A stretch of DNA of 64,000 nucleotides, taken from NCBI GenBank assembly GCA_934096275.1, contig CAKOLK010000001.1, positions 15,876 to 79,875 of the forward strand, given 5' to 3'. The notes below the pieces were generated by a model, which did no database searches, was not told the origin of the DNA, and worked only from the letters and a program-made list of their open reading frames with translations. This DNA is from an uncultured Bacilli bacterium. Its GTDB lineage: Bacteria > Bacillota_I > Bacilli_A > RF39 > UBA660. Position 1 is the first letter of the stretch. Every line of letters starts with the position of its first letter. Made by a program: the position numbers and the translations under genes. Shown here piece after piece: positions 32,177 through 33,915 of this stretch.

Positions 32177-33870
32177 TTATAAACTTAACTTATATGGATC
32201 AGAACTAGTACCATTTCCACCTGAAATCTTTACGTTAGATGAAAGATAAAGGACTGGGCGCACGACATACTCGCTGCTGATGACGTCGTCGCTTTCAAAG
32301 ACAAAGCCACCCGCCACACCGAAAGCGCCGGTGGAACCATCTGAATACTGCGGAAGTAACCATGTAGTTTCACTTTTATCTAACCAATTGTTTGTTGTTT
32401 TGCAACTTGCTGAACCATCATAATTATATAAGTTGCTTGTACATTCTTTTGATGCTGCATATCCATAATCACTTGCATACATTAGTGCTATCTTTTTATT
32501 TGCATCATTTTGCATTATTGGATTTGTTTCATAATAATATCCTGCCCTATTAGACCTATTTTTTCTTTCATATTGCCACATTACATCTGATGTTATTTCT
32601 GAAGTATTGTATCCTCCGAGATAATATTTTGTTGTTCCTATCATGTTTTTTGCATCAGTACTTAATGTGTTATAATAATCATTGTTTAAATATGTATTTA
32701 GTGTTCCTGTTACCCAATTATTATATGAGTTAGTTGTTGTGTCTTTTGTAGTATTCCATTTCATATTTCCTATTGAGGTATCTCTTATTATTTTTATTCT
32801 GTTTTCTACATTACCATTTGTATCTTCAGTAGGTATTATTCCTATTATTCTCCATGTTTCATTATTAAATGTTACATAGTTATTTACACTTCCTCCACGG
32901 TATCTATACTCTGTTGCAAACTTGCTGTCTACTTGCAATGTATTATCTATTGTATGAGTTATTTGTTCAAGTCCATCAGTACCAACTTTAGCTTGTGCAA
33001 ACTCTGATGCAGTAACTGGTACAAATGGTTTTTCATCACTTGCTTCAATATTAAGTGCATATTTATATTCAATAGGTTTTGTTGTATCTCCATTTACATA
33101 TAAATCATTATTAGTAGCAGCATTACTTATCCACATTATTATTTCATATTCATGTGTTTTTCCTTTTTCTAGTGAGTTTTCTATTAAGAATGTATCTGGG
33201 TTTACATTTATTATCTCTTTAGTTGTTGTTTTTTCTTCAAGCGGAGCGCCTGCTGGAAAAGTCACAGAATTATCTAAAATGTAATCAAGTATTAAATCTG
33301 CATCTTCTTTTGTTATTTTTTTATCATCATTTACATCTGATGCTGATAAGGTATATTTGCAAGTATATGCTTCATCAGTGGAAAGATTTTGTGTATATTG
33401 CATATCTGAACCATCAATTTGGTTATCTCCATTAGCATCACCAAGTTTATATGTCATAGTATTTTGTTTATCTACTACATGATATTGTATTACATCTTTG
33501 TTTATAGATGAGTTTATTAAATCTTTTATAGTTAATTTATAATACGCTGTATCACATGTAGAATTATTAGTTATAGTAACTGTTTTAGGTTTATAGTCTC
33601 CTTCAAGGGCTTGTCTTGTAGATATAGGATACTTACTAACTAGCATTAACTCATCACTTTCTTTAAAGTTTATATCTAGTTCACATTTAGATATTTTTAT
33701 ATTTCTTCTTCCTAGTAAGTTAATACTTGGATTAAACAAAGCAAAAGAAATACTAACTATTATTAGTACTAAGAATATTATTATAGTTATTATCTTTTTA
33801 TTTCTTCCTTTAGTTTTTAAAGGGTTATAAGTATTTTGCCCCCCCCCCCATACGAATTATTGTTTGTCAT
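32177..33870 (-). CDS. poly-G-gated surface-protein family, member 2 (extended N-terminal region with dockerin-like repeats plus the shared C-domain); phase-OFF in this assembly
   Basis: GGAGG (33878-33882), 7 nt, ATG at 33870, then MTNNNSY plus G11 gives MTNNNSYGGGGKILITL-stop. G12 or G9 would fuse to ..QNTYNPLKTKGRNKKIITIIIFLVLIIVSISFALFNPSINLLG.., which is the ORF-track protein 32177..33739. The C-terminal 280 aa is homologous to members 1, 3 and 4. Confidence 0.8.
33839..33849 (-). repeat. homopolymeric G11 tract of member 2
   Basis: Hand count: gcc + ccccccccc + a gives 11 C on the plus strand. Confidence 0.85.
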
Positions 33871-33915
33871 AGTTTTACCTCCATTTTAGACTATTTTGTC
33901 TATTCTTATGGTTTA

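Follow-up and report, generated by a model that had tools for sequence, protein, structure and literature searches.

The repeats that switch the opa genes of Neisseria (CTCTT) and the outer-membrane-protein paralogs of Helicobacter pylori (CT) reside in the region coding for the signal peptide. In Bifidobacterium breve, slippage occurs at a G-tract within pilus genes and the in-frame length is enriched in vivo (PMC9187656), and the nanH3 gene of Gardnerella features a coding poly-C tract that varies within populations and gives rise to either a full-length or a truncated product (bioRxiv 10.1101/2020.09.16.300947). Here, we analyzed a stretch of 64,000 nucleotides (nt) from an uncultured Bacilli bacterium, referred to as the window, that harbors paralogous genes named M1 to M6. 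We focus on M2, in which an uninterrupted run of guanines follows a short leader. We consider it very probable that M2 is a phase-variable contingency gene, in which translation from the start codon ATG1 is turned on and off by slipped-strand mispairing at the G-tract. The mechanism is textbook; no description of either the M1-M6 gene family or of phase variation in the host lineage was found in the literature.

The 5' end of M2 is organized as follows:

32177-33870, minus strand: M2 gene, off in the assembly at G11
33878..33882, minus strand: Shine-Dalgarno sequence GGAGG, 7 nt before ATG1, read directly and invariant in five cassettes
33850..33870, minus strand: ATG1 (33870-33868) and 7-codon leader MTNNNSY, the start called in orthologs at G9/G12
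33839..33849, minus strand: poly-G tract G11 (C11 on the plus strand), the switch, identified by run count and varying in length between assemblies
33817..33819, minus strand: TAA ending the 17-codon off product at G11, from translation
33734..33838, minus strand: M2-specific N-region QNTYNPLKTKGRNKK and 20-residue hydrophobic segment IITIIIFLVLIIVSISFALF, a putative signal or anchor recognized by eye in the translation

The leader is encoded by ATG ACA AAC AAT AAT TCG TAT and the tract begins 21 nt after ATG1. Downstream of G11 the sequence continues with CAAAATACTTATAACCC..., i.e. GGC AAA ATA CTT ATA ACC CTT TAA, and translation from ATG1 yields MTNNNSYGGGGKILITL followed by a stop (17 amino acids, aa). 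All tract lengths of 3n+1 or 3n+2 lead to a stop inside 13-17 codons (14 aa at G10, 17 aa at G11). With G9 or G12, 563 or 564 codons are open, ending at the stop at 32177. The original prediction, made from the letters of this DNA, had described the Shine-Dalgarno sequence, the ATG at 33870, the leader, the G11 tract and the early stop, and had stated that M2 is off at G11 and on at G9 or G12. Each of these details is correct on the minus strand, and the frames are borne out by translation. The predicted open reading frame (ORF) of 520 aa starts at TTG 33739, which is Leu44 of restored M2 and lies within the hydrophobic segment; a product begun there would be devoid of the basic N-region and of most of the export or anchor segment. 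The annotation is thereby corrected: what was predicted as a 520-aa ORF represents the body, out of frame here, of a protein of 563 aa that depends on the leader and signal encoded upstream.

Homologs argue for the same reading. M2 orthologs sharing 62-88% identity begin with MTNINSYGGGQNTYNPLK or MTNNNSYGGGQNTYNPLK (P0002, P0020, P0043, P0045, P0059 and P0074 among the public homologs), in-frame public orthologs read MTN[IN]NSYGGGQNTY, and P0055 has GGGGQ instead, corresponding to G12. Altogether, 240 public proteins were retrieved, 12 of which begin with the leader and GGG (G9), two with the leader and GGGG (G12) and 27 with MGGG.... The sixth paralog of the window has a broken-up tract:

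57923..57930, minus strand: interrupted tract GGAAGGGA of M6 (TCG CTT GGA AGG GAT), gene 56374-57966, 530 aa

M6 carries the same leader as the switchable copies together with an anchor found in M1, M3, M4 and M5 (type 1, see below), it is permanently in frame without a switch, and it reads MTVKNIINKYSLGRDTSKVALLFKD... (MTVKNIINKYSLGRDTSK...). Its body is related to that of M5 (36% over ~400 aa). Leader and body are likewise in frame in two further tract-less relatives, P0042 (...YSLGRDT) and P0158 (MNKHSILGRF). The existence of these locked-on proteins implies that leader and body are meant as a single reading frame. The claims that the true N-terminus of M2 lies upstream of TTG 33739 and that the upstream frame is conserved in homologs thus find support both in public orthologs that are called from the leader and in frame with it and in tract-less relatives such as M6 and P0042, which read leader and body in one frame.

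The same proteins bear on the idea that M2 is simply a decaying pseudogene with a frameshift in a homopolymer. None of the three near-identical assemblies that cover M2 has it in frame. On the other hand, the M2 body of 553 codons is free of stops in a stop-rich, AT-rich genome, tract length is the only lesion, orthologs of 75-88% identity are full-length with some of them in frame, and the same design recurs in five genes of the window and in many other genomes. We regard decay as extremely unlikely.

The tract of M2 is one of five in the window. The GC content of the window is 26.8%, and G/C runs number 12336, 1957, 208, 39 and 9 for lengths of one to five, respectively; there is none of six to nine, then four of ten and one of eleven. 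Each of the five long runs consists of G on the minus strand and occupies the same position in a paralogous gene, behind GGAGG, a 7-nt spacer, ATG and seven codons. Because no other G/C run exceeds five in a window of such low GC content and because all five share one homologous position, the tracts are not due to chance. Besides that of M2, they are:

13213..13222, minus strand: G10 tract of M1 (gene 12181-13243, 353 aa when on)
41929..41938, minus strand: G10 tract of M3 (gene 40867-41959, 363 aa when on)
45567..45576, minus strand: G10 tract of M4 (gene 44535-45597, 353 aa when on)
51808..51817, minus strand: G10 tract of M5 (gene 49507-51838, 776 aa when on), with a different body and TTC before the tract

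Read from ATG1, M1 to M5 are all out of frame. A census of cassette copies in related 'uncultured Bacilli bacterium' metagenome-assembled genomes (MAGs) from Hadza gut and in metagenome contigs returned 27 distinct complete copies, distributed over G8 (one), G9 (two), G10 (22) and G11 (two). Copies that are duplicates or sit at contig edges add further G9, one G11 and one G12, such that the cassette family, orthologous and paralogous copies taken together, ranges from G8 to G12. Apart from M2, G11 is present at loci L106 and L131. A scan of genome contigs with the pattern ATTCGTWYGGGGGGGG proved too loose, with at least 113 matches that are mostly chance hits in high-GC genomes; the true relatives among the matches listed stem from 'uncultured Bacilli' MAGs only.

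The predominance of G10 draws attention to another potential start codon:

33849..33851, minus strand: second ATG (ATG2), made up of the AT of TAT and the first G of the tract, in frame only at G10/G13 and without a Shine-Dalgarno sequence of its own

At G10, ATG2 reads ATG GGG GGG GGG CAA and opens the frame of the body with MGGGQNTY.... In the window this applies to M1, M3 and M4 (G10). M2, with G11, is in frame from neither start, and M5 at G10 is out of frame from any start, as TTC before the tract means that there is no ATG2. It is conceivable that ATG2 is a real, weak start and that the tract operates as a three-state switch with G9/G12 high, G10/G13 low and G11 off, G10 being the functional state. 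M2 would then be fully off and M1, M3 and M4 low, with MTNNNSYGGGQNTYNPLK versus MGGGQNTYNPLK as N-terminal peptides. ATG2 is in frame in 18 of the 22 G10 copies, gene callers start there in the 27 MGGG... proteins out of 240, G10 is by far the commonest tract length, and the tyrosine codon before the tract is always TAT and never TAC. TAT is, however, the expected codon in a genome of 27% GC, GGAGG is located 26 nt upstream of ATG2, and ribosomes coming from ATG1 would translate across it. The cassettes with TTC and hence without ATG2 (M5, L030, L095 and L023) are also out of frame, which means that a majority of off copies does not require ATG2, and tract-less relatives carry CTT at the ATG2 position and use ATG1. 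Given the missing Shine-Dalgarno sequence, ribosome transit, the out-of-frame TTC cassettes and CTT in the relatives, ATG2 is probably not the normal start, and we consider the three-state switch, which stays in play through the dominance of G10, possible but unlikely. One further start was examined and rejected. M1 and M4 have an ATG within the Shine-Dalgarno region (ATGGAGG) that is in frame at G10, but this ATG overlaps the Shine-Dalgarno sequence and lacks one itself, and its frame is terminated by TGA in M2 and M3.

Variation at the tract is seen directly when near-identical assemblies are compared. Locus L114 (ENA ERZ27287251) is syntenic with positions 26177-39851 of the window and 99.93% identical. 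The sole insertion or deletion in these 13.7 kilobases (kb) is the M2 tract itself, which is G10 in L114 and G11 in the window. L137 (ERZ28615129; 4.4 kb aligned) also has G10 at this site as well as two of the single-nucleotide polymorphisms (SNPs) seen in L114. The SNPs are confined to the vicinity of the tract:

33548..33860, minus strand: recombination patch at the 5' end of M2 (~320 base pairs), holding all 9 SNPs relative to L114, of which the 2 SNPs relative to L137 are a subset

The three near-identical genomes thus feature three distinct M2 5' alleles and no other differences in the aligned parts. For seven of the nine SNPs, the base seen in L114 is also present in M2 alleles of less closely related genomes, suggesting import by recombination and not new mutation. 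A related picture emerges for L133, which is 99.92% identical to the window over 21.1 kb and in which all 16 differences adjoin cassettes. Three of them reside just 3' of the M4 tract (45480-45543), where L133 has M1-type bases and the window M3-type bases, and the remaining 13 are located upstream of M3 (42099-42358). As judged from these bases, the M4 patch in L133 looks like gene conversion between paralogs.

Could G11 be an assembly or sequencing error, the true tract of M2 being G10 or even G9 or G12? Both L114 and L137 have G10, errors are common in homopolymers of 10-11, and cassettes are frequent sites of contig breaks. Against this, the three assemblies also carry real SNPs beside the tract and hence represent different alleles, and G11 is not exclusive to M2, as the copies in L106 and L131 attest. 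We therefore take such an error to be improbable; moreover, M2 would still be out of frame with ATG1 at G10 and our interpretation as a switch would remain unaffected. That the tracts as such are sequencing artefacts typical of poly-G can be ruled out, as they appear at the same codon position in independent assemblies from several studies. Another possibility is that the tract is fairly stable and that expression is achieved at the level of decoding, by RNA-polymerase slippage or ribosomal frameshifting, with out-of-frame alleles being constitutively leaky instead of switched. Slippage is known to occur at runs of ten or more identical bases, and a dominance of the out-of-frame G10 would be tolerable under such a bypass. 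Differences in tract length are, however, observed at the level of DNA between near-identical genomes and in-frame DNA alleles do exist, leaving decoding bypass as a very doubtful proposition.

Public contigs often end at or inside cassettes. This holds true for L134, which stops at window position 45568 after nine G of the M4 tract, and for L137, L076, L104 and L050. L137 ends at window position ~33043, where the M2 body begins to resemble that of M1. Such contig breaks could stem from tract heterogeneity or, equally, from the paralogous repeat.

The tract is part of a larger conserved cassette that includes a predicted promoter and a hairpin:

33916..33944, minus strand: predicted sigma-70-type promoter TTGAAA-17 nt-TAAAAT, 10/12 matches in a consensus scan
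33932..33949, minus strand: hairpin AGTACTT-GAAA-AAGTACT, then a T-run (33931-33925), overlapping the -35 box

Alignment of the five paralogous cassettes revealed an invariant -35 box and a nearly invariant -10 box, and the common unit consists of the hairpin (AGTACTT-GAAA-AAGTRCT plus T-run), TTGAAA-17-TAAAAT, GGAGG, ATG, leader, tract and CAAAATACTTATAA. Four copies of the -35/hairpin motif are present in the window, where 0.00 are expected, and all of them belong to the cassettes of M1, M2, M4 and M5. The hairpin of the M2 cassette folds as RNA at -10.8 kcal/mol (z -3.3). Positioned over the -35 box, it looks like a putative terminator or insulator. A search of positions 33700-34400 against Rfam returned one sub-threshold match (RefA9, E 0.27), which we take as chance.

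For the M2 cassette, identity starts at ~-130 when compared with M1 and M5, or at ~-60 when all copies are considered, and runs through CAAAATACTTATAA; M2 departs from its paralogs ~15 nt after the tract. M1, M3, M4, M5 and M6 are alike for ~200 nt past the tract and share the type-1 anchor LFKDVKEYNKYLL...SYAKWSSS, from which M5 and M6 pass into a different body according to sliding identity and tblastn. M2, in contrast, has an anchor unlike that of the other five (alignment, sliding identity) and a 690-nt insert encoding a beta-sandwich and a dockerin-like module, and it rejoins the body of M1, M3 and M4 at ~33010. The assertion that M2 combines the same promoter, Shine-Dalgarno sequence, leader and tract with a different anchor is thus confirmed by the paralog alignment.

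The wider family extends this mosaic. The tract leader is found on three types of anchor (LFKDVKEYNKYLL..YAKWSSS, NPLKTKGRNKKII..SFALFNPS and KLTNPNRKKVLL..GTYAIW) and is combined with two unrelated bodies; the third anchor is seen with the tract leader in P0208 (MNKHSIGGGVKLTNPNRKKVLL...GTYAIW). Conversely, the M2 body is also combined with tract-free N-termini (P0015-19, MKKMLEKFKKSKSS...), and the type-1 anchor is found with many tract-free leaders. Locus L135, a tract-less M2 homolog, has an unrelated promoter, Shine-Dalgarno sequence and leader; its similarity to M2 extends only from the codons for ISFALFNPSINLLG and the breakpoint lies at ...ISFALFNPS. From this mosaic of N-termini and bodies it follows that cassette, anchor and body are separable modules. 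The switch had been predicted to be portable, and its occurrence on three anchors and two bodies, together with M2 bodies bearing an unrelated 5' end in P0015-19 and L135, is fully in line with this. The family is large: 2816 (M2) and 4627 (M5) matches were obtained at E <= 0.001 among 8000 scored candidates.

A second type of poly-G leader, MKKIQNQDSKHSF-Gn with AAGGAGG as the Shine-Dalgarno sequence, is present in L023, L030, L050 and L095 (uncultured Bacilli MAGs CAKOIY and CAKORJ). Its tracts are nine or ten G long. None of the three complete copies is in frame, for which G9 would be needed in L030 and L095 and G10 in L023.

Taken together, phase variation of M2 may be envisaged as follows. 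The conserved promoter and the strong Shine-Dalgarno sequence would drive translation from ATG1, and the length of the tract would change by slipped-strand mispairing in replication. G9 and G12 would fuse the leader, as MTNNNSY-GGG(G)-, to the body of 553 codons and turn the gene on, while G11 as in the present assembly would leave it off. The unit of promoter, Shine-Dalgarno sequence, leader and tract would have moved between anchors and bodies by recombination or gene conversion, and each paralog would switch independently, with most copies off in the majority of the population. Reversible switching inside a population, promoter activity, export and binding are all parts of this model that we infer.

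Several points weigh against it. Of the 27 distinct complete copies, 22 are G10, and G9, which is on, is about as infrequent as G11, which is off. Such a peak is not predicted by simple on/off selection; it may arise from a mutational equilibrium around ten, from selection for the off state or from use of the second ATG. The case for switching is built on differences between assemblies, and an assembled homopolymer length can be a consensus error. Promoter, start codon and product are predictions from the sequence. Finally, M2 has no match among NCBIfam signal-peptide families, and export is read by eye from the hydrophobic segment.

The M2 protein itself offers some hints at its role:

33275..33445, minus strand: dockerin-like EF-hand pair, residues 142-198 of restored M2
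32177..33010, minus strand: C-terminal body, DUF6273-like, common to M1, M3 and M4 (57-74% aa identity, tblastn)

With M2, Pfam Dockerin_1 (PF00404) reaches 22.3-22.5 bits and stays below the cutoff of 22.9. Among 50 M2 homologs, 14 match this family, the best at 8.3e-12. Foldseek aligned the M2 model with several solved dockerins at a probability of 0.97-1.0 and a TM-score of ~0.6-0.8 when normalised by target length. The situation is similar for Pfam DUF6273 (PF19789), with which M1 scores 23.2 bits, below the cutoff of 23.5, and M2 has no match; 20 of the 50 M2 homologs match it, with 4.3e-18 as the best value. The 520-aa ORF was modelled with AlphaFold2 at a mean predicted local distance difference test (pLDDT) value of 83.6. 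The top match of this model in the Protein Data Bank (PDB) by Foldseek is 9qa6, an immunoglobulin A (IgA) peptidase from Thomasclavelia ramosa (E 6e-5, 312 columns); a profile search of PDB sequences gave no match. Judging from the size of the alignment, the aligned part of 9qa6 is presumably its N-terminal domain. That domain (residues 31-322) is DUF6273, dispensable for catalysis and without a known function there (PMC12402451). A C-type-lectin-like fold has been ascribed to DUF6273, which serves where ligand binding has to be variable and is targeted by diversity-generating retroelements in the 'tentaclin' receptor-binding proteins of phages (PMC10743442). On the basis of these models, the M2 family most likely comprises exported ligand-binding surface proteins.

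Among the public homologs (P0001-P0240), there are at least five types of N-terminal anchor, each ending in [GS]x[YF]A-x-[FW] and joined to several bodies. The anchor motifs GTYA-IW, SFA-LF and SYA-KW presumably resemble those of SipW-type signal peptides, a likeness unsupported by NCBIfam. The families for SipW-dependent signal peptides (TIGR04088/TIGR04089) have no match in M1, M2 and M5 and a faint one in P0087 (E 0.085, 12.9 bits against a cutoff of 60), and NCBIfam searches with M1, M2, M5 and homologs returned nothing significant. A gene for a SipW-type signal peptidase was not detected among the window ORFs scanned or annotated neighbours, in a scan that was not exhaustive.

M1 to M6 are scattered among housekeeping genes and do not reside in an island. 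Their neighbours include genes for PolC, DUF2207/LemA, sigma factors, Ddl, MnmA, AspS, DnaE, YebC and ThiF and a Flp/Tad pilus operon, a gene content that, as far as annotation goes, fits a cell-walled, low-GC Bacilli lineage. The Flp/Tad-type operon (Flp pilin, TadE-like, CpaE-like ATPase, CpaF, TadB, TadC; 35758-40306, minus strand) is situated between M3 and M2. An IS200/IS605-type Y1 transposase gene (52513-52974, minus strand) lies upstream of the M5 cassette at a distance of ~600 nt, and the cassette hairpin was considered as a transposon end connected with it. No link between this gene and cassette mobility was found; the hairpin motif is absent near the transposase gene and present only at cassettes.

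A further small gene lies back-to-back with the M2 promoter:

33982..34215, plus strand: divergent small gene consisting of promoter, Shine-Dalgarno sequence, ORF and hairpin

It has a near-consensus promoter (TTGACA-17 nt-TATATT at 33982-34010), followed by GAGGTG as the Shine-Dalgarno sequence and by an ORF (34076-34156) for 26 aa, MRKKDLLISVLLIVILLLLIIILVIL, with a lysine-rich start, a hydrophobic helix and a terminator-like hairpin thereafter. A paralog is encoded beside M1 (13432-13512, plus strand), decayed copies are present beside M3 (42179-42354) and M5 (51911-51963), and other genomes have at least 11 loci in which an intact version of 20-28 aa is encoded at a distance of 110-190 nt from the tract. 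The small peptides have no family match in NCBIfam; the gene is reminiscent of type I toxins or of small membrane peptides. The portable unit may thus be bidirectional, with the small peptide gene travelling with the cassette. Along these lines, one can tentatively picture a bidirectional module of peptide gene, back-to-back promoters and Shine-Dalgarno-leader-poly-G segment that is spread by gene conversion over a large combinatorial lectin-like family, with a three-state output per gene and G10 as the resting state, an idea that we hold to be rather unlikely. The divergent peptide gene, ATG2, the predominance of G10 and the locked-on M6 had all been missed in the original prediction.

Phase variation of M2 and its paralogs would endow an uncultured low-GC lineage of gut Bacilli, known from metagenome assemblies, with a multigene contingency system acting on lectin-like (DUF6273) surface proteins. 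Such variable surfaces shape IgA recognition, phage sensitivity and adhesion. As the cassette is compact, tract lengths are readable from metagenomic reads, and the on/off states of a commensal surface could be followed in hosts without culture.

Of the systems already described, the poly-G genes of Campylobacter jejuni come close, as do the homopolymer switches of Helicobacter and Haemophilus. Tracts of G8-G12 in the 5' coding region, genes for surface structures (predicted ones in the case of M1-M6), an AT-rich genome, toggling by +/-1 and many independent loci are features in common. In Campylobacter, however, tracts are found at unrelated positions in unrelated genes, whereas in the uncultured gut Bacilli, which are of the Gram-positive type, the tract is part of a cassette shared by paralogs and the proteins are not homologous. 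As is generally known, the opa genes of Neisseria and the outer-membrane-protein genes of H. pylori form paralogous surface families in which every gene has its own repeat, is switched independently at the level of translation and is subject to gene conversion, all of which is reminiscent of M1-M6. Here, by contrast, a homopolymer precedes the hydrophobic segment in a 7-codon leader, and the bodies are DUF6273-like and related ones instead of beta-barrels. B. breve is likewise a gut commensal with an intragenic G-tract of which the majority form, cultured or assembled, is not in frame, but it differs by having a single tract in sortase-dependent pilus genes, by being a high-GC actinobacterium and by lacking a portable multigene cassette (PMC9187656). 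Gardnerella nanH3, whose product is associated with the cell wall, shares the homopolymer in the coding region but is a single sialidase gene without a shared cassette. With the T. ramosa IgA protease and the phage tentaclins, the M2 family has in common a domain that is DUF6273 or resembles it. The body of M1-M4, however, is devoid of the peptidase domain of the former, and diversity is apparently generated by on/off switching and shuffling of modules and not by mutagenesis through a diversity-generating retroelement.

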